Shown: piece by piece, positions 12,095 to 46,171 of the stretch
Numbering within the stretch: position 1 is the stretch's first letter
How the letters are laid out: each line of letters begins with the position of its first letter
Assembly (NCBI GenBank): GCA_963770895.1
Contig: CAVYRF010000002.1
Span: 5,056,001 to 5,120,000 of the forward strand
Origin: an uncultured Acidobacteriota bacterium
GTDB taxonomy: Bacteria > Acidobacteriota > Thermoanaerobaculia > Multivoradales > UBA5704
Direction of reading: 5' to 3'
DNA length: 64,000 nucleotides
Program-made: the position numbers and the translations under genes
Notes under the pieces: generated by a model
What the model was told of the DNA's origin: nothing
The model's input: the letters and a program-made list of their open reading frames with translations, nothing else
Databases searched by the model: none

Positions 12095-12770
12095 CGCGGA
12101 GTACCAGATCTACGACGGCGAGATCCCAGGTCTCGCCCTTCGGGTCAACCCGAACGACCGGAAGGTGTTCAGGCTCTTCGGACCCTGTCGGGCCGAAAGC
12201 GCACTCTCACCCTGGGTGTGTTCGGCGCGATCACGCCCGACCAGGCGCGGCGCCTGGCCAAGGAGCGGCCCGCCGAGGTGACGCGCGGCGTCGATCCTGC
12301 CGGGGAGCGGCAGCGTGCCCGGCATGCGCCAAACGTGGCGGCGCTCGTCGAGCGCTACCGGGCAGAGCACCTCGCCGACAAGAAGCCCAGCACCCGCCTC
12401 CGGTCGGAGGGCCTCCTCAAGCGCGTCATCCTCCCAGCCCTGGGGCCGATGAAGGCCGAGGAGGTCACCCGGCAGGACATCCTGGCTTTCCGCCGCGGCC
12501 ACAGTGCCACACCGGTCGAGGCGAATCGCGCTGTCACCCTGCTTTCGGCGCCAGGCGGTAGCTGCGATCCTGCCGGGCCAGGTGCTACGGTTAAGGATGG
12601 GAGCACTCTGCAATAAACTCCGAGCCCGCCGGGAGCGCTACCTGTCGGCCCGAGAGCTTGCCTGCCTGGGGGCGCCCTTGGACGCAAGCGAGGCACCACC
12701 CTGCAGCGATTCTCGCCATTCGCCTTCTGCTCCTGACCAGCTGCCGCAAGAGCGAGAGCCTGGCCCTGGT
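12095..12770 (+). pseudogene. Frameshifted tyrosine integrase with arm-DNA-binding domain
   Basis: Pieces in different frames: YDGEIPGLALRV; GAITPDQARRLA...GVDPAGER; ANRAVTLLS; RERYLS; AIRLLLLTSCRKSE; C-terminal catalytic residues not found. Confidence 0.85.
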
Positions 12771-14101: not shown

Positions 14102-16057
14102 TCAGGGCTCTGTTGGGCAGCCGCGCCGTGCGGCGAGCGCTGCGGCTTGCGGTGCCGGCCGGGTGATCCCCGGCGGGTCGAGGCGGTGCAGCTCGCGCAG
14201 CTCGCGGCAGGCTAGCCCCGCGTCTCCGAGGTCGTCGTGGGCCTGGGCGAGAAGCCAGGTGGTTTCGACGGTGCCGGGGTCGCCAAGCGGATAGAGCCTG
14301 CGAGCCTCTGTCAGGTAGGAGATTGCGGCGCGTGGGTTGCCGGCCGCGAGCTCGAGGGCGCCGAGGCGGCGCTGGAGGGCCGGCCGCTCGGGATCGAGGC
14401 GCAGGGCGATGTGGAGCTGGAGGCGAGCCCTACCCACCATTCCGCGGGCGGCGGCGGCTTCGGCGAGCTCGGCATAAGCATCGGCGCGTTGCGGATCGGC
14501 GGCCACGGCGCGCAGCAGGTAACGGTACGCCTCGTCGTAGCTGCCGCGGTTGGTCAGGAAGCGGCCGAGGTTGTAAAGGTGCTCGGCCGACTCGGGCTCG
14601 AGCTGCACCGCCTCGCCGTAGTGCTCAAGGGCCGCCTGCACATCGCCGCGCGCCTCGTCGCAGGCAGCGAGGTCCGACAGGATCGCGGCCGATCGCGGGG
14701 CGAGCACTCGGGCAACACTGAGGCGGTCGGCGGCGTCGGTCCAGCGCTGCTCGCTCATCAGCGCGGCTCCCTCGGCGACCAGCCTTTCTACCCGCCACCT
14801 GCAGGCGACGACCGCGGCACCTGCGGCGACGAGCAGGACGAGCAGGGCAGCGGCCCAGCGGCGGCCCCACGTCGGCCGCTGCGAGCGGTCCCACAGGTCG
14901 TGCTGTGGGTAGAGGTCGCCGGTCGGCGTCCGCAGGAAGAGCACCGGGGTTGCCCATTCGCTGCGGGTGCGGCCCGCGGCATGGATGGCCAGCCTGCCTT
15001 CGGTGACGGCGGCGTCGACCGGCTCGCCGGCCGCGAGCTTCTGGTAGAAGGCCCGGCTGAAGCAGATCGCCGCGCCGTCCGAGATCGGCAGCTGCATGGC
15101 GACGACGGCGGGAAGGCCGCCGAGGACCAGGGCATGGGCGACGCCGGTGAAGGCGCTGGCGGTGGCGCTCGTGCCGCCGGAAGGGTCCGCGGTAGCGTTG
15201 CCGGCGGCCGATCCACAGGCGTTGAGGACGGCGAGGCGGAGCTTCGGAAAGCCGGCCAGCTGGTTGAGCAGGTCGGTTCCCCGCACCGGGTCAGCGCAAC
15301 CTTCTTCGGTGGCGAAATAGAGGACGCGATCGGCCGAGGCCGCCGGCGCGCCACCGCCATGGCCCATGAAGTGGAGCACGTGGACCTCGTGCTCGGCGAG
15401 CGCCCGGCGCAGCGCGGCGAGGGTCGGCGCCGCAGGCGTCACGACCTGCGCCGAGCTGCCGACCGCCTGGCGCAGGTTGGCAAGCTCGCGCTCGACTTCG
15501 AGGGGTGGCAGAGAGCGGGGGTTTGCGGCGACGGCCAGGATGCGGAGGCGGCGCGGCCGCGAAGCGGCCAGGATGGGGCGCGGCAGGGCGAGGAAGCGGG
15601 TGACGGGACGCTGAGGGCTCAGCGCCAGGAACTCGGGCGTGCCAGGCTGGCGCAGCAGCTCCCAGGGGAGCGCCTGCAGGGTGGCCAGGTCGGGGCTGCG
15701 GGGGTCGAACGTGAGTTCGATCCGCAGGCCGGCTCTAGCGTCGGTGCCGAGGAGATCGACACTTCGCTCGTAGAGGCCGAGGATCTCGCCCTGAAACAGC
15801 GCCCGGAAGAGCACTTCGCCGACGGTTTCCGCAGTGCGTGGCGGCGCGGTGCCCACGGAGCGGAGGTCGCGCGGCGACAGGATCTGGCCAAGGGTACGGC
15901 CAGCGACGGGCAAGGTGGGAATCTCGAGGCGCCCGCTACCCTGGCCTTTGGGGGTGAGGGCGATGACGGAGTAACCGATTGCCGAGCTGGCAGAGCCGGA
16001 TGTACCGGCGGCGGGGCGGGCGGGAGCGATCAACAGCTGGAATCGGTAGTAGTGCAC
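14102..16057 (-). CDS. CHAT protease - transmembrane helix - TPR protein
   Basis: LPWELL, HFMGHG and LNACGSA (His/Cys dyad); TM WAAALLVLLVAAGAAVV; TPRs. Confidence 0.88.
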   Translation of the reverse strand: MHYYRFQLLIAPARPAAGTSGSASSAIGYSVIALTPKGQGSGRLEIPTLPVAGRTLGQILSPRDLRSVGTAPPRTAETVGEVLFRALFQGEILGLYERSVDLLGTDARAGLRIELTFDPRSPDLATLQALPWELLRQPGTPEFLALSPQRPVTRFLALPRPILAASRPRRLRILAVAANPRSLPPLEVERELANLRQAVGSSAQVVTPAAPTLAALRRALAEHEVHVLHFMGHGGGAPAASADRVLYFATEEGCADPVRGTDLLNQLAGFPKLRLAVLNACGSAAGNATADPSGGTSATASAFTGVAHALVLGGLPAVVAMQLPISDGAAICFSRAFYQKLAAGEPVDAAVTEGRLAIHAAGRTRSEWATPVLFLRTPTGDLYPQHDLWDRSQRPTWGRRWAAALLVLLVAAGAAVVACRWRVERLVAEGAALMSEQRWTDAADRLSVARVLAPRSAAILSDLAACDEARGDVQAALEHYGEAVQLEPESAEHLYNLGRFLTNRGSYDEAYRYLLRAVAADPQRADAYAELAEAAAARGMVGRARLQLHIALRLDPERPALQRRLGALELAAGNPRAAISYLTEARRLYPLGDPGTVETTWLLAQAHDDLGDAGLACRELRELHRLDPPGITRPAPQAAALAARRGCPTEP

Positions 16058-16332
16058 GGGCGACTCGGCGGGGTCGGGTCGGCAGCGCGATCGGCTCTCT
16101 ATTGTCCGGCGAGCGCGTCGAGGCCATCGAGCTGCTGCGGAGGCGTCATTGGTGATGGCGGCGGAGCGGCTGCCGTCGCCAGGACGCCGCGGCTTGGAGG
16201 AAGGTGACTTTCCGCCTTGCGTTGGGGCGATCGGCTGCCGCAACAGGTTCGGGCACGGCCTGGTCACTCATCGCGCAGGGTGGGAGCGGGCATGTTTGAC
16301 ACCTGTCATTGCGTGCTTCATTCTTGAAGTTC

Positions 16333-19300
16333 ATGCAGCAAGCGACAGTCTACCTTGCCGCCGCGGCGGTGAGCGCCCTGGTGCTCCTCTCCGCCTTCTC
16401 GGCGCCTGCAGCCGACGACTTCGGGCGGGCGCAGGCGCTTTGGCATCGGGCCACGGCGGCGGCGGAGGAGGGCAGGGCAGGCGAGGCGATCCGCGAGTTG
16501 CGCGCGGCCGCCGAGCTCTACCGCAGGGCGGGTCGCTTCAACGACGTCGTGGGCTGCCTGCTGCAGCTGGCCGATCTCGAGCGCAGTCGCGACGACGCAA
16601 GCGCCATTGTCGACCTGCAGGCCGCGATCGAAATCGCCCGCACCCGGGGCCTCCCGGACCTGGTAGCGGCGGGGCAGGCCATCTTCGCCACAACGCTCTA
16701 TTCGCTTGGCCGGTACCAGGAGGCCGCGAGCCAAGCCGAAGCAGCTCTGCCGGGATTGCGCCGCACGGGCCCGAAGTCCAATGTGATGAGCCTGCTGGAG
16801 CTCTTGGGACAGATCGAGATCCTGCTCGGCCAGCCGGCGAAGGCGGTTGGCCACCTCGAAGAAGCCCTGCGGCTCGACCGCGAGCTGGGCGCCGAACCGG
16901 CAACCCATGCCACCTTCCTCCACAATCTTGGCATGGCCTACAAGGAAAGTGGGCGCTTGCAGAATGCCCTGCCGCTGCTTCAGGAATCGCTGCGCATCAT
17001 CGAGCATGGAGGAGCCAAGAACCAGATCGCCAGGTCGCTCACCGCCTTAGGGATGGTGTACATGAGGCTTGGCGATAGCAGCCAGGCGCTGGACACCTTC
17101 GCGCGGGCCGAAGCAATCTTGCAGTCGATCGACGATCCCCTCGACCTCTGGCTGGCGCGGCTGGGAGTAGCCCAGGTCCGTGGCCAGCAGGGCCGCTATG
17201 ATCTCGCGCTGCCGCTCTACGAGAACACCATCGCGGCGCTCCGCCGGCTCCACGCCGAGAAGGACCTGGCTCAGGCGCTCAACAGTCTCGCAGATCTCGA
17301 TCGCCACCAGGGGCGGGCTGATGACGCCATCGCACTCGAGCAGGAAGCCGTCACGCTGGCACACAAGCTCGGCAGCTGGGCAACTGAAGCCACGGCGCTG
17401 AACGGCATCGCGGTCGCGGAAAGCGATCTTGGCCACTTCGAGCGCTCCCTGTCCTACTCTGAGCGGGCGCTTGCCCTGCACCACCAGGCGGGCGACGGCC
17501 CTGGTGAGGCGGCAGCTCTGATCAACACCGCCGCCATCTACATGCAAATCGGGCAGCCCGAAGAGGCGTTGGTGCGCAGCGAGCAGGCGCTCACCCTGGC
17601 CCGGTCCATTGCCGACCCCGCCGCGGTGGCTGGCGCGCTGAACCTCCTGGCCGCGGTGGTCCTGGTCGAACGTCCCGAGACCGCCCTGGCGCAGGCCGAG
17701 GAAGCCCTGGCGGTCGCGACAGGCAGGCCCGGGTGGCGGCCGGTCGAGCTGCAAGGCAACATGCTCAAGGGTTCGGCGCTGTTGGTCCTTGGGCGGCGCG
17801 ACGAAGCGGCCGCGACATTGACCAAGAGCCGCGACCTCAGCCAAGAGTTGGGCAGCCGGTGTAAAGAGAGCGAGATCCTGTTGCTCCTCGGCTCTGTCCA
17901 CTACCTGTCGCGGCAGCTTCCAGCAGCGCGGCAGACGCTCGAAAACGCTGTGCACCTCGCCAGGGAGAACCATTGTGCAGCGCCCTCCACCTACTACCAG
18001 CTGATGCTGGGACAAGTCTACGCTGCCTTGCACCTCAACGAACCGGCGATCGCCGCGCTCAGCGCTGCCGCCGCTGCGTTCGAGACGACCCTGGGGGACA
18101 TCCGCTCCAGCCAGCTGCTGGCCGGCGTCATCGGCACCAACTCCTCGCCATATCCGACACTTGCCCGGCTGCTGGCCGACGCCGGCCGCACCGCCGACGC
18201 CTTCGACGTTGCCGAGCGCGCCCGGGCGCGCGCCCTGCTCCATCAGCTGGAGAAAGGACCGGCTGGCAACCTTCACCGCGCGGCCGCCGGCGACCTGACG
18301 AGCGAAGAGTCCGAGTTGCGCCGTCGTCTGGACCGGCTCCGCCGTGAGGCCGAGGCGGAGCAGGAGAAGCCAAGCGACCGGCAAGATCGCGGCCTGCTCA
18401 CCTACCTGGGAAACGAAATCGATCAGGGACGGCGCGGCTACGAGGCTTTGCTGCTGCGGTTGCAGGTTGCCGATCCTGAATATTCCTCCCTGGTGCACGC
18501 GGCACCACTCTCGCTCGCCGAGGTGCGCCGCCTGCTCGCTGCCGACACGACCCTGGTCGAGTATTTCGTCCTGGACAGGGAAACCCTCGCCTGGGTGATC
18601 GATCGCGATTCAGCCGAGATGGTGCGGCTGCCGGCGTCCGCCGCGCTGCTCGAGCAGCAGGTGCGGGAGCTCTGCACGCGCATTGCACGCCGCGAGCCGG
18701 TGGCCGACCTTGCGGCATCGCTGCATGCGGCCTTGCTCGCTCCGCTCCTGCGCTTCATCCATCACTCGAATCTTCAGATCGTCCCTTTCGGCGCGTTGCA
18801 CGCCGTCCCCTTTGCCGCTCTCGGAGGCGCCGGCGACCAGCCGCTGGTCGCGACCCATACCGTGAGCTACCTGCCGAGCGCCAGTGTGCTCCCCTTCCTG
18901 GCCGGCAAGCGCAAGGCCGGAACCGGCCGCGCACTGGTGCTGGGCGACCCCGATGGCTCCTTGCCGCACGCCGCAGCGGAGGCCCGCTCCGTCGCCAGGC
19001 TTTACGGCGTCGATCCGCTGCTCGGGCCGGCGGCAACGGAGACCGCGCTGCGCGCCCGTGCCGCGCAGACGGGCATCCTGCACATCGCAGCCCACGTCCA
19101 CTTCGACCAGGCGCGGCCACTGTGGAGCCACGTGGCGCTGGCTGCCGATGCCGCCAACGACGGTCACCTGGAGGTGCACGAGATCTTCAGCCTCGATCTG
19201 CGGCAAGCCAGGCTGGTGGTGCTCTCGGGTTGCGAGTCGGGGCTGGTCCGGCTTGACCAGGGCGACAACGTCATCGGTCTGAGCCGTGCCTTCCTCTATG

Positions 19301-19530
19301 CCGGCGCGCCGGCTGTCCTCACCACGCTCTGGCCGATCGACGATGAAGCCTCGGCAGTGCTGATGCTTTCCTTCCACGCTCATCTGAAGCGAGGCGAAAA
19401 CGCCGCCCAATCGCTGCGCGCCGCCCAGCTTGCCGTGAGGCAGGACGACCGTTGGAGATCGCCCTGCTACTGGGCTGCCTTCGCTCTTACCGGCGACACC
19501 GGCGGCGACCGGAGCGCCCCCTCGCCTTGA
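16333..19530 (+). CDS. Signal peptide + TPR array + CHAT protease
   Basis: Hydrophobic N-terminus; many TPRs; LHIAAH, VLSGCESG, TLWPIDD and YWAAF. Confidence 0.9.
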   Translation: MQQATVYLAAAAVSALVLLSAFSAPAADDFGRAQALWHRATAAAEEGRAGEAIRELRAAAELYRRAGRFNDVVGCLLQLADLERSRDDASAIVDLQAAIEIARTRGLPDLVAAGQAIFATTLYSLGRYQEAASQAEAALPGLRRTGPKSNVMSLLELLGQIEILLGQPAKAVGHLEEALRLDRELGAEPATHATFLHNLGMAYKESGRLQNALPLLQESLRIIEHGGAKNQIARSLTALGMVYMRLGDSSQALDTFARAEAILQSIDDPLDLWLARLGVAQVRGQQGRYDLALPLYENTIAALRRLHAEKDLAQALNSLADLDRHQGRADDAIALEQEAVTLAHKLGSWATEATALNGIAVAESDLGHFERSLSYSERALALHHQAGDGPGEAAALINTAAIYMQIGQPEEALVRSEQALTLARSIADPAAVAGALNLLAAVVLVERPETALAQAEEALAVATGRPGWRPVELQGNMLKGSALLVLGRRDEAAATLTKSRDLSQELGSRCKESEILLLLGSVHYLSRQLPAARQTLENAVHLARENHCAAPSTYYQLMLGQVYAALHLNEPAIAALSAAAAAFETTLGDIRSSQLLAGVIGTNSSPYPTLARLLADAGRTADAFDVAERARARALLHQLEKGPAGNLHRAAAGDLTSEESELRRRLDRLRREAEAEQEKPSDRQDRGLLTYLGNEIDQGRRGYEALLLRLQVADPEYSSLVHAAPLSLAEVRRLLAADTTLVEYFVLDRETLAWVIDRDSAEMVRLPASAALLEQQVRELCTRIARREPVADLAASLHAALLAPLLRFIHHSNLQIVPFGALHAVPFAALGGAGDQPLVATHTVSYLPSASVLPFLAGKRKAGTGRALVLGDPDGSLPHAAAEARSVARLYGVDPLLGPAATETALRARAAQTGILHIAAHVHFDQARPLWSHVALAADAANDGHLEVHEIFSLDLRQARLVVLSGCESGLVRLDQGDNVIGLSRAFLYAGAPAVLTTLWPIDDEASAVLMLSFHAHLKRGENAAQSLRAAQLAVRQDDRWRSPCYWAAFALTGDTGGDRSAPSP

Positions 19531-24735: not shown

Positions 24736-25266
24736 AAGCGCAACCGCAACCTGAAAACCGGGCGAGGCCACTCTCCGACGGCAACGAACCCTCTCATCTT
24801 TCACCTACACGGTGCTCTCAGCCAAGAGGTGAGCATGGTGCTCACCGAGGACGACTACCTGGATTTCCTCATCTACGTTCACAACTTGCTGCCACCGACC
24901 GTTGAGAAAGCCTTCGAGGAGTCCGCTCTGCTCTTCCTCGGATACGGGCTTGCCGACATGGACTTCAAGGTGCTGTTCCGCAAGATCAACAGCTACTCTG
25001 GGGGACATGGCAGACATTTTGCGGTCCAGATAGATCCTCAACAAACCGGCCTACCCTCTCTGCAAGCCAAGCAAGAGCTCGAGTACCTCACGACGCAGTA
25101 CGAGGCGCAGCGAATCAAAGTCTTCTGGGGCTCCTGCAGGGATTTCGTGAAGGAGCTCCGGCGCCACCTCCGCTCATCTCCTCCCCAATCTTCGCCTCCA
25201 GCCTCAATTCAACCGGCGACCTCACCTCTGCCGTGCAAAACGTCTTCTTGTTCAACGCCTTCATAA
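24736..25266 (+). pseudogene. SIR2-like (SIR2_2) protein, C-terminal part only
   Basis: PLIFHLHG...VLTEDDY...LLFLGYGLADMDF...VFWG. Confidence 0.8.
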
Positions 25267-26948
25267 ACATCCAACCGAGGACTGTTACGGCCAGTGCTCT
25301 GAGCGGCATGAACCTGGCCGACTTCTTGCGCGACGGGCGCGGCCCGCAGGAACGCCACTTGGCTCCGCCGCCGTTTCGCCTCCTCCTATTCGATCAATTC
25401 GAGGAGATCTTTACCACCTATCCGGACCGCTGGTCGAACCGCGAGGATTTTTTCGAGGAGATCGGCGCGGCCCTGGAAAATGACCGTCAGCTCCGTGTGG
25501 CTTTTGCCATGCGTGAGGAATACCTCGCGAGCCTCGACCCGTACCTGGGACGATTTCCGGAGACGCCGAAACGATTTCGCCTCGAGCCCCTGCGGGAGGC
25601 GCCTGCCATAGAAGCCGTTCGTGGTCCTGTCAGCCGGTTCGGGCGCTCATTTGCTCCCGGCGCCGCCGAAGCCCTTGTCGACACCCTGCTCCACCGCTCT
25701 GCCACCAAGCTGGACGGGATGTCAGCGGCGTCCTCGGAGTTCGTCGATCCGTTGCAGCTCCAGGTCGTCTGTAGCCGCTTGTGGAGTGCCCTGGATCGAG
25801 CGGTCAAGACGATCGAGATGGAACACATCAGCGGGTATGCCAACCTCGACCAGGCCCTAGAAGAGTATTTTGACGATTCCATCCGAAAGGTGGTCCAGGA
25901 GACAGGCTTCTCAGAAGCGGCCATCAGGGCCTGGTTCCAGGACAAGCTCATCACGTCGGAGAAGACACGGGGCTTGGTGTTCCAGGGGCAAAACGACGTG
26001 GGCGGCCTCCCCATCGCCGCCGTGCGCGCGCTCGACCTCCATCACCTGGTTCATGCCGAGATGCGCACGGGACAGAGCTGGTATGAGCTGATCCACGACC
26101 GCCTGATCGAGCCCATATTGTGCTCCAACCGGAAATGGCAGCAGGAGACGCTGCTTACGGAGAGCGACGTGGTTGGACGGATCGAGTCACTGGCGTTTCA
26201 CCGCAGCAACGCCCGCAAGCTGCGCAAGGTGATCGATCGGCCCATCCGGGCGCTTTTCCGCTACGCTCAGCGGACCAGTAGCTCTCCTGAGGAGGACACC
26301 GAAGACTGGATTCACGGTGAACGCATCTTTGCGCTTGAGGTGTTGGAAGGTAACGTTCATTTGCGCAGGCTCGATCCCGGCTCCTACCATCGTCTCGAGA
26401 TGCAGTGGCTATCCGAGGTGAAGCGGACCAAGGCTTACCTCTTATGGGAACCTGATGAGGGTTCCCCGGTGCCGCGTCATACCGACGACTACTATTTCGC
26501 CGCTTGCGAAGGGTTCCGCAACGTGCTAGTCAGCCGCGAGTTGAAGGCAGCCGCGGAAAGGTTTGGCCCTTTCGAGAAGTACCTGAAGACTCACTATCTC
26601 GATGCGGCGGGCAAGCTCGACCTCGGCAGGCAAGGGTCGCAAGCCATGCTTACGAGGAAGGCCTACCGGATTTACGAGGTGACCGGAGAAGCCAACCCAG
26701 ACAGTAACTGGCAACATGCCTGCGCTTACGCCCGAATGTTTTACGACAACATCCTCAAGGCGGTCAAGGAGCACGACCCGGAGAGCACCCGCACCGTCCT
26801 GGAGGCCTTTCAGTACAGCCGCGCCGCCGAACATCGCTACCTCATCATCAACTGCTTCGAGGCTGCGATCGCCGTGTACTTCCTCGATTCCGACGTGATC
26901 AAGAGCCTATGGACCGGGCCGGAAGGGCAGCAGACCCTGGCGTTCTAG
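25233..26948 (+). CDS. STAND (nSTAND1-like) ATPase lacking Walker A, with C-terminal repeats; probably truncated
   Basis: LLFDQFEE, MREEY, LEPL, QLQVVC..LW and YELIHD motifs; no GxxGxGK upstream. Confidence 0.7.
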   Translation: MQNVFLFNAFINIQPRTVTASALSGMNLADFLRDGRGPQERHLAPPPFRLLLFDQFEEIFTTYPDRWSNREDFFEEIGAALENDRQLRVAFAMREEYLASLDPYLGRFPETPKRFRLEPLREAPAIEAVRGPVSRFGRSFAPGAAEALVDTLLHRSATKLDGMSAASSEFVDPLQLQVVCSRLWSALDRAVKTIEMEHISGYANLDQALEEYFDDSIRKVVQETGFSEAAIRAWFQDKLITSEKTRGLVFQGQNDVGGLPIAAVRALDLHHLVHAEMRTGQSWYELIHDRLIEPILCSNRKWQQETLLTESDVVGRIESLAFHRSNARKLRKVIDRPIRALFRYAQRTSSSPEEDTEDWIHGERIFALEVLEGNVHLRRLDPGSYHRLEMQWLSEVKRTKAYLLWEPDEGSPVPRHTDDYYFAACEGFRNVLVSRELKAAAERFGPFEKYLKTHYLDAAGKLDLGRQGSQAMLTRKAYRIYEVTGEANPDSNWQHACAYARMFYDNILKAVKEHDPESTRTVLEAFQYSRAAEHRYLIINCFEAAIAVYFLDSDVIKSLWTGPEGQQTLAF

Positions 26949-27722
26949 ACAATATGGAACGTTCTGTGGTTTCTGCGGTCGCAGGCATCTGGACCTCGCA
27001 CGCCGGTAAGGCCGAGGAAGGGCTGCTCGAGCCGGCGGTGCACCCTGTCGTAGGGTGGGTTGAAGAACTGCCCATAGAGTTGAAATCGCCAACACGGGCG
27101 ATCGGCCAGGACTGACCTTCGGCTAACGGCGTTGTCACAGGCGTTGACGCTGAGGTCCCGCCGGTGGTCATGGGCTCCAGTGCCGCAGTCGTCAGGTCAG
27201 TGCTCGTGGTTGCCGGCTCAGCGGTGGTCGCCGGTGTTGTCTCCTCTGTGTGCTCCTCTTACCTGGAGGACACCACCAGAATGAATACCAGTAGCGCAAC
27301 GACGAGCCCCACCAAAAAAAGCCAGGTGAAGCTGTCTTTTTGCCGCGCAGGTACTGGAGACGGTGCGCGGTCTTGCGATGCAGGATTTCCAGGAGGTGGA
27401 ATTTGAGCGTGCTGCGCCGCACGCTGGCCGGCCTCGACGACGATTTCGCTCGCCGCCGTTCCTCGATCACCGTTGCCAGCGTTTTCGACGACTCCCCCGT
27501 TGCCGTTGTGCATCGAGGATTTCACTTCGCTGGGAGGCTGAAGTGGCGGGTCTGCAGCGTGAGGCGTTGGATCTATCACTGACGGTTTCGGCGTCACGGA
27601 ATCGAGCGCCTGAGTCGCAGCCTCCTGGACCCTGCGGCTGTCATCTTCCCGTAAGGCGACCAGGGTGGTCCGAGCGGCCTCCGCCAGTCCCTTGTTGGAT
27701 GCCGTAAGAAGGCGAGCAAGCG
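26945..27722 (-). pseudogene. Remnant of a HEAT-like / TM / Thr-rich stalk protein
   Basis: LARLL...LREDDSRRVQEAA; TM helix; in-frame TAA at 27259 followed by TTPATTAEP stalk; N-terminus replaced by IS sequence. Confidence 0.5.
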
Positions 27723-28136
27723 AGCTCCTCATCGCTCAACCTCTCCCACGCCGTCCCCAGCAGGCCAGCCCTCTGCGCCCGCTCCAGGTACTCCGCAACG
27801 CTCGCCCTCCCCATCCCGCACGCCCGACTGGCCTGCCGCTGGCTCAGGCCGCACACCAGCAGCAGCCGCAACACTTCTTGAACTTTCCTCATCGTAAGTC
27901 TCCGTGCCGGCATCGCCCTCCCTTCGTCGTGAAGGTCGACAATGCCACAGCGTCGGAGCCCTTTTCGTCGCTCGTTCCGACCGGAAGCCGGCCACCCTTC
28001 CGATGCAAGCCGGCCACCCTTCCGGCGACCACCCCAAAGTGGCCGCCTTCGCGTCGGAATGGGTGGCCGCTTTCACCCCGGAATGGTGGCCGCCTTCACG
28101 TCGGCATGCCTGGCCGGCTTCGACCGGAAATACGCA
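27722..28136 (-). mobile_element. istA: IS21-family remnant 1: left end plus istA 5' fragment
   Basis: End TGCGTATTTCCGG... with several GGCCAC-containing subterminal repeats; MPARRLTMRKVQEVLRL...VAEYLERA (ATG 27913). Confidence 0.85.
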
Positions 28137-29282: not shown

Positions 29283-29780
29283 AGTAGGCGAGGTCCAGGG
29301 AGGAATGCCGGGTTTGGTAGGGGAGGGGGTGGCGTTACCTTCGCGGGACGGGAGAGCCGGTTGTCGGTCCCGGCCCAGCCACGACGAGCGCTCGGACGGT
29401 TCGGATGCCCGCCGGGAACACTCTCAGATACCGGGCAGGCGGGTGCGGCGAGGTCGAGGGTGGGGGAGTGAGGGGAGGGAGGGCAGAGCGGCTGGCGGCG
29501 AGGCAGCGATGATCGACTCCCTTACCTGGATCGGGTGGGCGGGGGAAGGCTTCGAGTTGCCACCTGGGCCTCGCAGCGGGTGGGTGGAGCGGCGGAACGT
29601 GGTGGGCGCGCAATGCTTGCCATTCCCGGGCCAGGTGTTGCAGGCAGGTCCGGCAGATTCCGCGAAGCAAAGAGCGGTTGGACGGGCAAGAGCAGTGGTC
29701 GGAAATGAAGAAAAGCGACCGCCGGCTCTGCCGGTGTGGGCGAGATAAAGCATCTGGCCAGAGCGAGGCGCGCCGCGTTC

Positions 29781-29809
29781 TTGACGCGGGCCGCTGGGAA
29801 GTCCATGCT
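29781..29809 (+). promoter_or_regulatory. Promoter of the vapBC pair, probably leaderless
   Basis: TTGACG-17 bp-CATGCT, 6 nt before the ATG; no SD. Confidence 0.6.
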
Positions 29810-29815
29810 TGGGCC

Positions 29816-30049
29816 ATGGGCACCCGAACCATCGAGCTCGACACTGAAGCTTACGAGGTCTTAGCGCGCGAGGCGCGGCCGGGCGAAACCTTCTCCGAAG
29901 TGATCAAGTCGCGCTTCGGCCGACGCGTCACGGCGGGTGATCTGCTGCGGGCCGCGGCTGAAGCGAAGGTCTCGGCGGAGACCTTGGATGCGGTGGATGA
30001 GCTGATCCGTACCCGCGGCGAGAGCCCGGCCACCGCCGCGGATCTGTGA
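29816..30049 (+). CDS. vapB: VapB-type antitoxin
   Basis: TRTIELDTEAYEVL...PGETFSEVI; overlaps vapC. Confidence 0.85.
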   Translation: MGTRTIELDTEAYEVLAREARPGETFSEVIKSRFGRRVTAGDLLRAAAEAKVSAETLDAVDELIRTRGESPATAADL

Positions 30050-30450
30050 TCCACTTCGATACGTCTTTCGTCGTCGATGTCCTGCGCGAGTCGTCGCAGC
30101 TGGGCGGAGGGCCGGCGACGTCTCTTCTGGCATCGCTGGCCGAGGAGGAGTTCGCGGTCAGCATCTTTGTCGTTTGCGAGCTGTTCTCCGGAGCGGCCCT
30201 GGCGCAGCGGGGCGATCAGGAGAGGCAGCGGGTGAAGGGCTTTCTCTCGAACCTTCGTATCGTCCAGCCGGACGGAGACTTTGCGGAAGCCTACGGAGCG
30301 ATCTTCGCCGCTGCCAGGCGCTCTGGCCGTAATTCGGGCGTCATGGATCTTCTCATCGCGACTGCGGCGGTCCGCGAGCGAGCGCGCCTGTTGACTCGTG
30401 ATCGGAAGGATTTCCTTGCGTTACCTGGGCTCGATCTGATGTCCTACTAG
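30046..30450 (+). CDS. vapC: VapC PIN-domain toxin
   Basis: IHFDTS...EL...DLLIATAA...LLTRDRKDF. Confidence 0.92.
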   Translation: MIHFDTSFVVDVLRESSQLGGGPATSLLASLAEEEFAVSIFVVCELFSGAALAQRGDQERQRVKGFLSNLRIVQPDGDFAEAYGAIFAAARRSGRNSGVMDLLIATAAVRERARLLTRDRKDFLALPGLDLMSY

Positions 30451-43113: not shown

Positions 43114-43500
43114 CTATTTGTTGATGTCGATCTTCCAGCGCCTTTCTTCTTTGATCAATTGATCGGTCTCGCGCTCGCTGGTGCCGTTGCCCAGCGCCAG
43201 CACCGCTACCAGCTTGCACTTGTCGCCATTCACATTGACATCAGTGAAAGTGATCGAGGCAATCCCGCCGCTTTTCTCGATCTTCGTCTGCAGCTCGGTG
43301 AGGGCAGCCTTGAGCTTGTCTTTGCCAAGAGTCAGCACGCGCGCGGCGAGCAGGCCCTCGGCTTCCTCGAAGTTCCCTGCAGCCGCCGAGCGATAGAAGC
43401 GTTCGACGGTTGATTGGGGAGTATCGAACAAGGCGCAGCTCTGGCAGAGCAGCACGATTGCTAAGGCGGCAACGCTCTTTAGATAGTTCATGGCAGTCAT
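43114..43500 (-). CDS. DUF4878 / NTF2-like lipoprotein
   Basis: Lipobox-like QSC; P.STVERFY...LIKEERRWKI; ATGA overlap with the upstream gene. Confidence 0.78.
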   Translation of the reverse strand: MTAMNYLKSVAALAIVLLCQSCALFDTPQSTVERFYRSAAAGNFEEAEGLLAARVLTLGKDKLKAALTELQTKIEKSGGIASITFTDVNVNGDKCKLVAVLALGNGTSERETDQLIKEERRWKIDINK

Positions 43501-44267
43501 TCCTGTTCCTGAAAGAAGGCGACCAATCGGAGGTGTGGGCTCTGGCTCAGCCGGCTGGGCAGGAGGACCGGACCACTGAGGCCGGGCAGGGGCAGGCGGT
43601 CGAAATGGCCGTCGACCAGGTCGACGCCAGCGGTCTTGAATGCTCGCCAGGCCAGCTCGGTGCAGTACAGCCGAGAATCGGAAGTCAGATCGAAGGCGCT
43701 GTCAAACGGCACCTGCCGCATTGCATAGGCGAGAGCCGCGGCGCTTGCCCGCGCGGGCGCATCGCCACTGCCGCGCAGGCGATACAGACCCGCCGCGCGC
43801 GCCACCAGCGGCGCCAGGAAGGCCGAAAGGGGCTCGACACGAGCCCCACCGCCCAAGCCCGCGTCGTCGTCTTCGGGAGGTAGCGTATGGATCACATAGG
43901 GCGTGCCGTCTGACCGCCATATGATGCCAACGTGCGAATAGTTGCCGCCGTCCTCGGATGCCAGGACCAGGCTGCTCACCAGGTCCCGGCCGCGGCGAAA
44001 GACAAGATCCCCGGTCGCAAAGGCATTCGGGTCGTACTGCACTCCCTGCCGGCCTGACCGGCCAGGGCGATCCTTACGGCTGGAGCCGGACGCCAGCAGG
44101 AGCGTCGCGGCCGCCGCCAAAGTCGCCAGCACGGCCAGGATCAGGATTTCCGTGGTGGCCGGCCTGTGCAACCTGCCTGCCCAAGCAGGCACGCCAGGGT
44201 GGCTGGCGCGGCGCTGCGGATGAGGACAGGGAGCAGCAGCAGCCTGTGGCAACTCAGGCCGGGTCAT
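43497..44267 (-). CDS. YiiX/YebB-like permuted papain (NlpC/P60) amidase, membrane-anchored
   Basis: GDLVFR, YSHVGI, FDSAFD, LYCTEL; TM ILILAVLATLAAAATLLL; start uncertain. Confidence 0.85.
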   Translation of the reverse strand: MTRPELPQAAAAPCPHPQRRASHPGVPAWAGRLHRPATTEILILAVLATLAAAATLLLASGSSRKDRPGRSGRQGVQYDPNAFATGDLVFRRGRDLVSSLVLASEDGGNYSHVGIIWRSDGTPYVIHTLPPEDDDAGLGGGARVEPLSAFLAPLVARAAGLYRLRGSGDAPARASAAALAYAMRQVPFDSAFDLTSDSRLYCTELAWRAFKTAGVDLVDGHFDRLPLPGLSGPVLLPSRLSQSPHLRLVAFFQEQE

Positions 44268-45078
44268 TGGACACCAGAACGCATTGACGGGGGTCGCAGC
44301 GGTGGGCGAAGAGTCGCGGGACGCGGGCATCAGCCAGCCCAACGGCAGTGAGCTGTTGGCAGGCCAGCTCGAAGGCCGTTTGTACGCTGCGGCCGTAGCC
44401 AAGGGCGTTGTAGTAGCCGCGCGCGAAGAGGATCGCCGCAAGGTCGCCGATGGCTCCCGACATGCCAATCGAACAGTCGACGTGCTTGGCGATGGCCTCG
44501 GCCAGCCTTGCTGAGTGACAGGCGTTGAGCACAACGGAGCGGATGCCGTGGCCAGCTGACGCGAACAGGCCGGCGAGTGCGGCCATCAGCGGCGCCTCGC
44601 CTTCCGCGTTCTCATCGCTGCCGGTCTTGGCGGCGGTCGCTGCGACATCCCGGCGCCCCATGGCGGGCCTGCCCGCAGCGATCACCAGCGGATCGCTTTC
44701 CAGTGCCAGGCTGGCCGCGCCGCCGTGACCACTGACGTGTACTGCCATCGGCTCGAAGCGCAGCAGGCTCTCGGCCATGTCGGCGGCGGTCACCGCCCAG
44801 CGCTGATCCAGCTCAAACCTGCCGCTGTGGCCGCTGGTGCGGAGCGCGTCGTCCACGGCGCGTGCTTCCTGGTCGATCCTCAGCCGCGAGGTGCCCGACG
44901 GATTGGCGGCCATGAACAGAATGCGGATCGGACGCTGTCCTTGCGCGTCGAGCAGCGTCGGTGCGCGGGGAGCCGACGGGAGGGGTGACTCCATATGCGA
45001 GGCGTGCTGGCTGATGTCGCCAACACGCAACCGTTTACCGGAGATCTGGATGCTCTGGTGGTTCTCGTCCCTGTTCAT
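44254..45078 (-). CDS. Stand-alone CHAT (caspase-like) protease with a short N-terminal extension
   Basis: RILFMAANP...LRIDQE, VHVSGHG, VLNACHSA and FARGYY motifs. Confidence 0.88.
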   Translation of the reverse strand: MNRDENHQSIQISGKRLRVGDISQHASHMESPLPSAPRAPTLLDAQGQRPIRILFMAANPSGTSRLRIDQEARAVDDALRTSGHSGRFELDQRWAVTAADMAESLLRFEPMAVHVSGHGGAASLALESDPLVIAAGRPAMGRRDVAATAAKTGSDENAEGEAPLMAALAGLFASAGHGIRSVVLNACHSARLAEAIAKHVDCSIGMSGAIGDLAAILFARGYYNALGYGRSVQTAFELACQQLTAVGLADARVPRLFAHRCDPRQCVLVSNDPA

Positions 45079-45953
45079 GGGCGTGCACCACTGGAAACGA
45101 CAGCCGACTGCCCGATCGGACCGAAGACATTGCGCGAACCTTTGATATTCATGTTCTGGGTGTTGTTGTTGGTGATGCAGAAATTAAATACTTGCCGCAA
45201 CGTTTCCGAGAGCATGCCATCTTCGGCGAGCAGTTTCTCTAGCTCGGTCAGCACCAGGTTCCTGGTGGCGGTGTGGATGCCCTGCAGGTCGATGACATCA
45301 AAGTCGTTCTCCGCGTAGTGACTGATTGCGGCGCAGAGACTGTAGCGGTTGAGCATCCAGGGAATGAGCCAGGCCCATATTGTGAAAGGGCTGAGCAGGG
45401 CGAACTTAACCACGTCCCAATCGCTGAAGCGGCCGCGAATGTAAGCGACATATTGGGCGGCGACAGTGCTCCCGAAGGGCGCAAAATGCAAGAAAAAAGT
45501 CAGCCTGCTGTCGTAGGGCGAGCGGATCAGGATACGCAGGAACTCTCTGGCCTGTTGCGTTTTCTGCTCTGTGATCGAAAGCGGCGCCAGAACCTGAGCG
45601 TGGTCGTCCGGCAGCTTGACCAGTAGACGCGAGGCGAGCCGCTGCCGCAGATCGGCAGCAAAGCTCCGCGTCTGCTCGCGGCTCCAGTCTGGCTTGATCG
45701 GAATGGGAACGGAGATGTCTTCAATCGCACTGCCATAGCGATAGAAAAGACCCTCGCCCCAGAAGTGATCATCCCCCTTGGTCTCGCGCTCTTTGTCGAG
45801 CTGCACCAGGTACACCGACAAACCCATCACGCTGGCGAGAACGATGAAACCCAGCCATTTTTCCGCGGAGAGGACTGCGAGGTAACACATCGATACCAGA
45901 AGCCACTTCAGGGGTTGTCCGATCCACCGGAGTTTTAGCAGCAGGTAGTCCAT
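45075..45953 (-). CDS. Hypothetical membrane protein with N/Q/G-rich C-terminal tail
   Basis: AAAGGAGG RBS; two N-terminal hydrophobic segments plus one internal; tail NNNTQNMNIKGSRNVFGPIGQ. Confidence 0.8.
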   Translation of the reverse strand: MDYLLLKLRWIGQPLKWLLVSMCYLAVLSAEKWLGFIVLASVMGLSVYLVQLDKERETKGDDHFWGEGLFYRYGSAIEDISVPIPIKPDWSREQTRSFAADLRQRLASRLLVKLPDDHAQVLAPLSITEQKTQQAREFLRILIRSPYDSRLTFFLHFAPFGSTVAAQYVAYIRGRFSDWDVVKFALLSPFTIWAWLIPWMLNRYSLCAAISHYAENDFDVIDLQGIHTATRNLVLTELEKLLAEDGMLSETLRQVFNFCITNNNTQNMNIKGSRNVFGPIGQSAVVSSGARP

Positions 45954-46171
45954 GGTTTTCCTCCTTTGGCGAGAGATCCTCGCCGCCGCGGTAAGGTCAT
46001 CGCGAGACGACCAGCGCATCCGGCGTCTCCATGGGAAGACACCGGCTGGCGCGGTGAGGGTGAGTTGCCAGAGAAGGCGGCGGCCTGCCGCTCCTCGCGG
46101 TGAGGAGCGCGGCTGCGCGCACATGGCGGCTTGCGACTTGCATAGGACGTGCGCGGCCCCGCGGCCGGACT

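Follow-up and report, generated by a model that had tools for sequence, protein, structure and literature searches.

A 64,000-nucleotide stretch of DNA from an uncultured Acidobacteriota bacterium of the class Thermoanaerobaculia (assembly GCA_963770895.1, contig CAVYRF010000002.1, positions 5,056,001 to 5,120,000; hereafter the window, whose own numbering is used throughout) carries four coupled minus-strand genes flanked by glnS and treY. The four genes are real, but they are two modules: module A comprises a membrane protein (P0001) and a CHAT protease (P0002), and module B a C92 papain-like enzyme (P0003) and a lipoprotein (P0004). The key informative feature of this cassette, overlooked in the first-pass annotation of the same DNA, is a matched and co-varying motif pair: a motif of about 20 residues, rich in N, Q, G, I and V and lying near the C-terminus of P0001 (the tail), matches the first 25 or so residues of the CHAT protein (the head). 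This suggests that module A, the core of the cassette, is an amyloid-type signalling system in which a membrane protein is coupled to a caspase-like protease by co-evolving tags. The features of module A are as follows.

45075..45953, minus strand: P0001, first gene of module A, 292 amino acids (aa), proposed receptor (hydropathy, AF2 model).
45102..45170, minus strand: C-terminal motif of P0001, residues 262-284, rich in N/Q/G/I/V (local match to the CHAT head; profile match in 56/83 family tails).
45001..45069, minus strand: N-terminal motif of the CHAT protein, residues 4-26, matching the P0001 tail (alignment).
44254..45078, minus strand: P0002, second gene of module A, 274 aa, stand-alone CHAT caspase-like protease with His118/Cys187, proposed effector (Pfam, PADLOC, PDB profile).

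The two motifs of the window align with a score of 37 and 9/23 identical residues (shuffle p 0.0005). A scan of 3996 adjacent open reading frame (ORF) pairs of the genome left seven that passed a filter on score and composition; the window pair was the sole N/Q-rich one, and the other six were glycine-rich and lay in ORFs that are not gene-like. Across 12 family loci, the mean tail-head score was 58.0 for cognate and 34.4 for non-cognate combinations. After centring on rows and columns the cognate advantage was 23.6 points (permutation p=1e-5, the floor of 100000 permutations), with the cognate partner scoring best in 10/12 rows, or in 9/12 on raw scores. Odd, lineage-specific variants occur on both partners of one locus in L047, L026, L022, L027 and L006. 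Many of the identical residues are encoded by different codons (8/14 in L020, 9/13 in L027) and DNA-level scores were mostly at background, so the match is held at the protein level and does not reflect recent duplication. Co-variation across loci bears on interaction and not on polymer state, and on this evidence we consider a motif-mediated interaction of some kind highly probable. Modelling three tails in complex with three heads yielded a score of 0.01 and a mark of 0.32, an outcome that was used neither way.

The match extends well beyond the window. A profile trained only on 26 partner heads was run against the tails of 83 family members (P0005-P0121 of at least 230 aa, minus P0018, P0066, P0076, P0085, P0095 and P0110), of which a few are cognates of the training heads. 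It scored at least 8 bits on 56/83 tails, compared with 1/83 shuffled tails and 0/83 mid-protein segments. Relative to the bodies of the same proteins, the tails are enriched 3.6-fold in N, 2.7-fold in Q, 1.9-fold in G and 1.4-fold in I and V. When 18 heads picked by eye, including that of the window, were compared with 111 tails, with adjacency not established for those of database proteins, 14 beat 20 shuffles with some tail, two of them marginally.

Both partners can be exchanged under the same motif logic. A metagenome scan for a distant subfamily of gene 1 returned 27 loci of 35-68% GC, two of which end before the next gene. In 25/25 loci with downstream sequence the next gene, which mostly overlaps gene 1 and is cut by a contig end in one copy, encodes a helical protein of about 105-120 aa with a matching motif at its start. 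Profiles for the CHAT, the C92 enzyme and the lipoprotein matched 0/27 of these loci, many of which are short. Motif scores across the CHAT and helical groups drop to about 28. The small helical partner has no Pfam family and is modelled as a disordered head (residues 1-33) followed by what would be a generic four-helix bundle; its Atlas neighbours DUF4404, TCAD2 and DUF5955 score below 0.9 and serve as leads only, and PADLOC matches to coiled regions of LmuB and PbeC were rejected as compositional. At the receptor end, an unrelated DUF6232 membrane protein with a matching tail stands ahead of the CHAT in L006 (435-2118) and L007 (829-2178). A candidate further DUF6232 membrane protein occurs with a CHAT in L093/L112 (505-1218). 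In L006, L093/L112, L027 and L091 the CHAT gene directly follows a small heat-shock and MerR-like gene pair, a site that is apparently a variable slot in genus g10.

P0001 matched no Pfam, PADLOC or NCBIfam family at E<=0.1. A whole-library search gathered its family as 117 representatives at 50% clustering, one of which (P0041) comes from a Bacteroidota genome, and close relatives are encoded in Thermoanaerobaculia, Thermoanaerobaculum and Holophagales records. In the AF2 model (pLDDT 91 from 83 sequences, below 50 in the tail), an N-terminal helical stretch with two hydrophobic segments is accompanied by an alpha/beta core and a Trp-rich helix (178-200), and the motif lies in a disordered tail; the motif is likewise modelled as disordered in the monomer of the small helical partner. 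Since its two N-terminal helices have charged flanks, the protein is probably anchored in the inner membrane, its core and tail lying on the cytoplasmic side. Foldseek returned no match to the model at E<=0.001. The best VIA-align rows were Z 8.6 (9o5a, root-mean-square deviation (rmsd) 5.0 over 165 aligned residues) and Z 8.0 (the COR domain of 3dpu, rmsd 3.2 over 105), followed by KA1/START-like rows at Z 6-7.8; a COR or lipid-binding function was rejected, as the similarity is to a common alpha/beta arrangement. A word search, which is weak evidence on this point, found no longer fused forms of P0001. Two long homologues of gene 1, P0085 (639 aa) and P0095 (727 aa), carry a motif-like segment internally, followed by an extension with no Pfam hit, and are possible all-in-one forms; the extension-bearing P0085 showed no match to the small helical partner.

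P0002 falls just under the curated Pfam CHAT cut-off (E 1e-4, 22.3 bits against 24), which close homologues pass, and matches the PADLOC chat model at E 4.5e-10. The CHAT family profile matched PDB entry 8tl0 at E 2.9e-31; this is the only significant solved relative, and we take it to be the SAVED-CHAT filament protein. The P0002 family thus has both the profile match and the His-Cys dyad of a CHAT protease. About 50 residues precede the protease domain. No hydrophobic segment was found in the protein, so the CHAT and the gene 1 tail that it matches are both taken as cytoplasmic. Long CHATs of this subfamily carry an EAD1, EAD8, TIR, SAVED or receiver domain ahead of the protease, or EAD7 after it. 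Of 76 further CHAT homologues, six (below 225 aa) were left out of the count; among the others the motif stood at the start of 13/35 short proteins (three of them training sequences) and 0/35 long ones. The simplest reading is that the motif may do the job that SAVED or an EAD does in the sister proteins, namely gathering CHAT domains. The genome holds 34 CHAT matches; by eye, no matched motif pair was evident for the six others of the P0002 subfamily that were inspected.

Several further CHAT genes were observed. Divergent CHAT-TPR and TPR-CHAT genes lie in the window at 14105-16267 (minus strand) and 16309-19527 (plus strand), and an EndoU nuclease gene directly follows the CHAT in L021 (8133-9044). 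CHATs with G/N-rich heads or internal segments are present in L099 (1336-2118), L100 (1480-2265), L096 (1036-2097) and L097 (1045-2133); no matching upstream tail was seen for these four, whose partners may be encoded elsewhere.

The four minus-strand ORFs (45075-45953, 292 aa; 44254-45078, 274 aa; 43497-44267, 256 aa; 43114-43500, 128 aa) overlap at all three junctions (45075-45078, 4 nt; 44254-44267, 14 nt; 43497-43500, 4 nt), as the first-pass annotation had described, and overlaps of these sizes are ordinary for operons. The 14-nt overlap rests on an inferred ATG at 44267. An alternative start of gene 1 is possible at 46124; 45953 is preferred because of a purine-rich ribosome-binding site 6 nt upstream and the lengths of homologues. 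That annotation also held that both peptidases keep their catalytic residues, which alignment bears out: His118/Cys187 of the CHAT is invariant in 10/10 aligned homologues and His112/Cys202 of the C92 enzyme in 8/8. The remaining features of the cassette are listed here.

45960..45965, minus strand: ribosome-binding-site-like hexamer before the ATG at 45953 (sequence).
43497..44267, minus strand: P0003, first gene of module B, 256 aa, membrane-anchored permuted papain-like C92 (YiiX/YaeF) enzyme with His112/Cys202 (Pfam, PDB, alignment).
43114..43500, minus strand: P0004, second gene of module B, 128 aa, DUF4878/NTF2-like lipoprotein with lipobox Cys22 (Pfam, PDB, alignment).

P0003 matches Pfam PF05708 (E 5.5e-12, 46.5 bits, above the cut-off of 27) and PDB 2if6, which is YiiX (E 1e-5), has one hydrophobic helix and shows the permuted order of Peptidase C92, with the His ahead of a C-terminal Cys. 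P0004 lies just under the DUF4878 cut-off (E 4.6e-4, 20.9 bits against 24.1) and matches PDB 3k7c at E 0.0016; its lipobox Cys22 is invariant in 10/10 homologues. Both proteins are taken to face the periplasm. Since YiiX holds a fatty acid in its pocket (PMC3142127), a lipid- or lipoprotein-editing role is plausible, and module B may be an optional accessory on the envelope side, a lipid- or lipoprotein-acting enzyme with a partner lipoprotein. Judging from co-location alone, it may feed the receptor. The C92 and lipoprotein pair also occurs by itself, without the membrane protein or the CHAT, in L119, L120 and L122.

The gene 1 profile found 12/92 family genomes, that of the window included, in 6/11 genera, and 0/400 other genomes drawn from the phylum. 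The CHAT gene is directly downstream in 12/12 of these loci, although the L022 assembly has a frameshift in it, and in L048 each of the four cassette genes is frameshifted. The C92 gene is present in 11/92 genomes, at the gene 1-CHAT locus in eight and elsewhere in three, and the lipoprotein gene adjoins it in 11/11. In four genomes, which are incomplete, module A was found without a C92 match at E<=1e-10. The prediction that the genes co-occur elsewhere therefore holds, with all four adjacent in 8/92 family genomes, but the description of a single four-gene operon stands only in part: the modules are separable and come in either order, A then B in the window and L022, B then A in the six others. 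The cassette is mobile, and its two modules often travel together.

Horizontal acquisition had been proposed from base composition. The outer genes are indeed more AT-rich than their neighbors (GC 0.567 and 0.566, against 0.668 for glnS and 0.737 for treY), while the inner genes are at 0.676 and 0.680. GC at third codon positions (GC3) is 0.73-0.80 across all four genes and 0.86 and 0.92 in the flanking genes. Cassette GC3 ranks near the 11th to 36th percentile in a rough set of ORFs from across the genome. Such values are not extreme here, so composition by itself is weak support for transfer. Also in line with acquisition are the patchy occurrence of gene 1 and the site after glnS, which holds three different gene sets in the four same-genus relatives examined and the cassette in none of them. 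One of the same-genus genomes has a TIR-domain gene at this site (L077, 1227-2468). In the nine genus relatives, treY either had no match or lay on another contig than glnS, which left no empty site to define, and the cassette ends showed no clear target-site repeats, promoter or terminator.

We propose that module A would be a two-component signalling unit joined by homotypic short motifs. An envelope stimulus would cause the membrane protein to cluster, and the clustered tails could then stack into a cross-beta, amyloid-like seed, as their composition, length and likeness to BASS pairs suggest. The seed would template the matching CHAT head, so that CHAT domains cluster and become active, much as in filament-activated SAVED-CHAT. 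The active protease would cut a target outside the cassette, or perhaps the membrane protein itself, and the outcome would most likely be arrest or death of the attacked cell. The membrane protein is placed upstream since a sensor domain is missing from either partner and both ends are swappable. Adjacency, the motif match, its co-variation, the exchange of receptor and effector genes with the motif logic kept, and the intact catalytic residues are established here; from these we infer amyloid formation, direction, trigger, substrate and a role in defence. For the full chain, from membrane receptor through amyloid seed and CHAT activation to defence, our confidence leans modestly toward its being right. 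A broader picture, which we advance tentatively and would not yet back, is of a kit-like pathway from membrane receptor through amyloid to caspase, with at least two unrelated receptors (the gene 1 family and DUF6232), two effectors (the CHAT and the small helical protein) and a diversifying code like a cryptic RHIM whose lineage-specific variants would insulate pairs from one another; the periplasmic C92-lipoprotein module may then be an envelope tripwire.

The first-pass annotation recognized no named system in this combination of genes, and the PADLOC search (2023 library) gave only the generic chat model for the four proteins. The closest parallels are the amyloid signalling pairs BASS1-10 of Dyrka et al., whose signature is near-identical, N/Q/G-rich, disordered motifs at the facing termini of adjacent genes (10.1101/2020.01.06.895854). 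As in module A, their genes are adjacent and often overlap, the motif of about 25 aa is C-terminal on the first protein and N-terminal on the second, Q, N, G, V and I are enriched, and CHAT is named among the linked domains. The differences are that no NLR or Bell domain is found here and that both partners lack NTPase and repeat domains; what bears the C-terminal motif is an alpha/beta membrane protein rather than a helical Bell domain of about 100 aa. Their hosts are mainly Actinobacteria and Cyanobacteria, whereas ours is a member of the Thermoanaerobaculia. A published BASS3 peptide (PMC8086366 Table 2) resembles the L026 pair by eye over the first 13 residues. In Bab/Agp with BASS11, for which antiphage cell death was demonstrated (10.1101/2024.11.07.622273), two adjacent genes likewise share an amyloid motif, the receptor is not an NLR and the motif is also reported with CHAT, but there a soluble TPR-GreA/B-PIN protein with the motif at its N-terminus acts as receptor and a Bell-like domain as effector. 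Module A, then, would work like a BASS pair, yet because it has no NLR or Bell domain, reversed polarity and no RHIM tetrad, we do not file it in a named BASS family or under RHIM; BASS1-11 were compared by description.

SAVED-CHAT of Haliangium ochraceum belongs to the same CHAT subfamily, and the L020 homologue matches the PADLOC SAVED_CHAT model at E 1e-6. Alignment to 8tl0 places His and Cys 47 residues apart, like H375/C422 of SAVED-CHAT, a protein that is monomeric and inactive until filament assembly; in that system cA3-bound SAVED builds the filament and the adjacent PCaspase is the substrate (10.1101/2023.06.23.546230). The present cassette differs in that SAVED, CRISPR and cyclase genes are absent, as is a conserved substrate, and in its glnS and treY flanks. 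In EAD-coupled conflict systems a shared adaptor on two neighboring proteins recruits the protease (EAD8, PMC10907252), and EAD1-, EAD7- and EAD8-CHAT fusions occur in the same CHAT subfamily, but an EAD is a folded domain, whereas the adaptor here is a motif of about 20 aa modelled as disordered in the monomer. A further analogy comes from an animal pathway with unrelated domains, and is an analogy only. Drosophila PGRP-LC is a membrane receptor upstream of a caspase. The cryptic RHIM of PGRP-LC/Imd has a relaxed VxxG core and forms a receptor-to-adaptor amyloid relay (PMC13506858). Among the literature matches listed, outside subscription journals and the figures and supplements of the two BASS preprints, no title or abstract opening described a membrane-protein tail paired with a CHAT head, and DUF6232 was mentioned in none of the full-text literature searched.

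Several observations weigh against the relay proposed here. The window pair ranks near the bottom: its tail, which contains a proline, reaches 46 with a non-cognate head, and the tail of a 70%-identical homologue fits the window CHAT head better, with a score of 60. The 12 loci behind the co-variation test are kin, with about seven motif types by eye, so that p=1e-5 overstates their independence. The head profile gave less than 8 bits for 27/83 tails and less than 5 bits for 18. For the distant subfamily, the 27 loci came from a scan that used the tail motif as its pattern, and many of them nearly duplicate one another; 12 helical-partner loci picked as distinct showed no within-group cognate advantage (54.2 vs 54.5, p=0.6). 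The modelled core fold of P0001 gives no clue to function, its best Z of 8.6 being usual background. The polarity is also reversed with respect to BASS pairs, where the effector, CHAT included, has the motif at its C-terminus and the NLR has it at its N-terminus: motifs next to CHAT are reported at its C-terminus and paired with NLRs (10.1101/2020.01.06.895854), and the same arrangement, N-terminal on NLRs and C-terminal on effectors, is described in a methods paper of 2025 (PMC12261475) and a review of 2026 (PMC13506858). The RHIM/BASS3 core tetrad, (V/I)-Q-(V/I/L/C)-G (PMC13506858), is present in 0/83 tails and 0/26 heads, whose position two is usually N, S, R, K or T. RHIM families were not hit by 24 motif segments, nor did they appear among the 25 families shown for 83 members, in a search whose HMMER filters drop weak short matches. 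Finally, searches of viral contigs and plasmids turned up no relatives, the loci compared share no conserved substrate gene beside the cassette, and the window locus does not lie in an obvious defence island.

Some of these points feed rival explanations. The reversed polarity would fit the same pairing run in the opposite or a circular direction, with the CHAT or the small helical protein acting first and the membrane protein as executioner, by tail templating or by CHAT cleavage. In its favour, published pairs have the C-terminal motif on a membrane-targeting effector, the Trp-rich helix is conserved in P0001 homologues, and no other substrate is conserved at the locus. We nevertheless think this unlikely: neither partner has an evident sensor domain, the CHAT being a bare protease and its alternative a four-helix bundle; CHATs of the P0002 subfamily sit behind adaptors; and DUF6232 can replace the membrane gene while the CHAT stays. 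The missing RHIM core and the proline in the window tail, together with the silence of co-variation on polymer state, would also suit a small, non-amyloid beta-sheet contact that tethers the CHAT, or keeps it inactive at the membrane until a signal arrives. In-register stacking, however, predicts what is seen here, motifs that are nearly the same on the two partners, enriched in N/Q/G and disordered in the monomer, and an inhibitor contact needs no resemblance between its two surfaces, which makes this contact rather improbable in our judgment.

If the relay is as proposed, it could still belong to ordinary signalling in envelope stress or development, where module B would edit lipids or lipoproteins. 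The 34 CHAT matches in the genome, the company of module B with A in 8/12 genomes, the fatty acid held by YiiX (PMC3142127) and the lack of viral or plasmid carriers among those searched would fit such a role. Set against this are patchiness, changing insertion sites, fast motif diversification and effector swapping, all typical of conflict systems, and the finding that the sole BASS pair with tested function that we found in the available literature is antiphage; non-defence signalling accordingly has only a small share of our confidence. That the motif match is a functionless by-product of low complexity or old duplication, and the operon a chance cluster, we hold to be very improbable. The short length and biased composition of the motifs, and the score of only 37 for the window pair, speak for it, but shuffles that keep composition score about 18-25, and independent drift after a single old duplication would give no cognate advantage, whereas the centred advantage observed was 23.6 points. 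The match also recurs with another receptor (DUF6232) and another effector (the small helical protein), and the window pair alone was N/Q-rich among those passing the genome-wide scan.

The fungal and bacterial amyloid signalling pairs of the cited papers have soluble receptors, and their endpoints are mostly membrane-targeting helical domains. If the relay from membrane protein to CHAT is right, the principle of amyloid signalling would then cover integral membrane proteins as receptors and a caspase-like protease as the directly activated partner. It would also give a function to an unannotated family of more than 100 clusters and a lead for DUF6232. The loci would further offer a natural panel of co-evolved motif pairs, with a protease read-out, for the specificity code of amyloid templating.

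Other genes around these loci were noted. Kinase-, FHA- and PP2C-like genes, recognized by eye, lie upstream of module A in L023 (997-6247). Elsewhere in the window, a short SIR2-like ORF followed by an nSTAND1 ORF (24829-26945, plus strand) looks like a broken SIR2-STAND defence gene, a helix-turn-helix ORF at 27644-27913 may be a transposase remnant, an integrase fragment lies at 12218-12613 (plus strand), and a VapBC-type antitoxin-PIN pair is encoded at 29678-30447 (plus strand).

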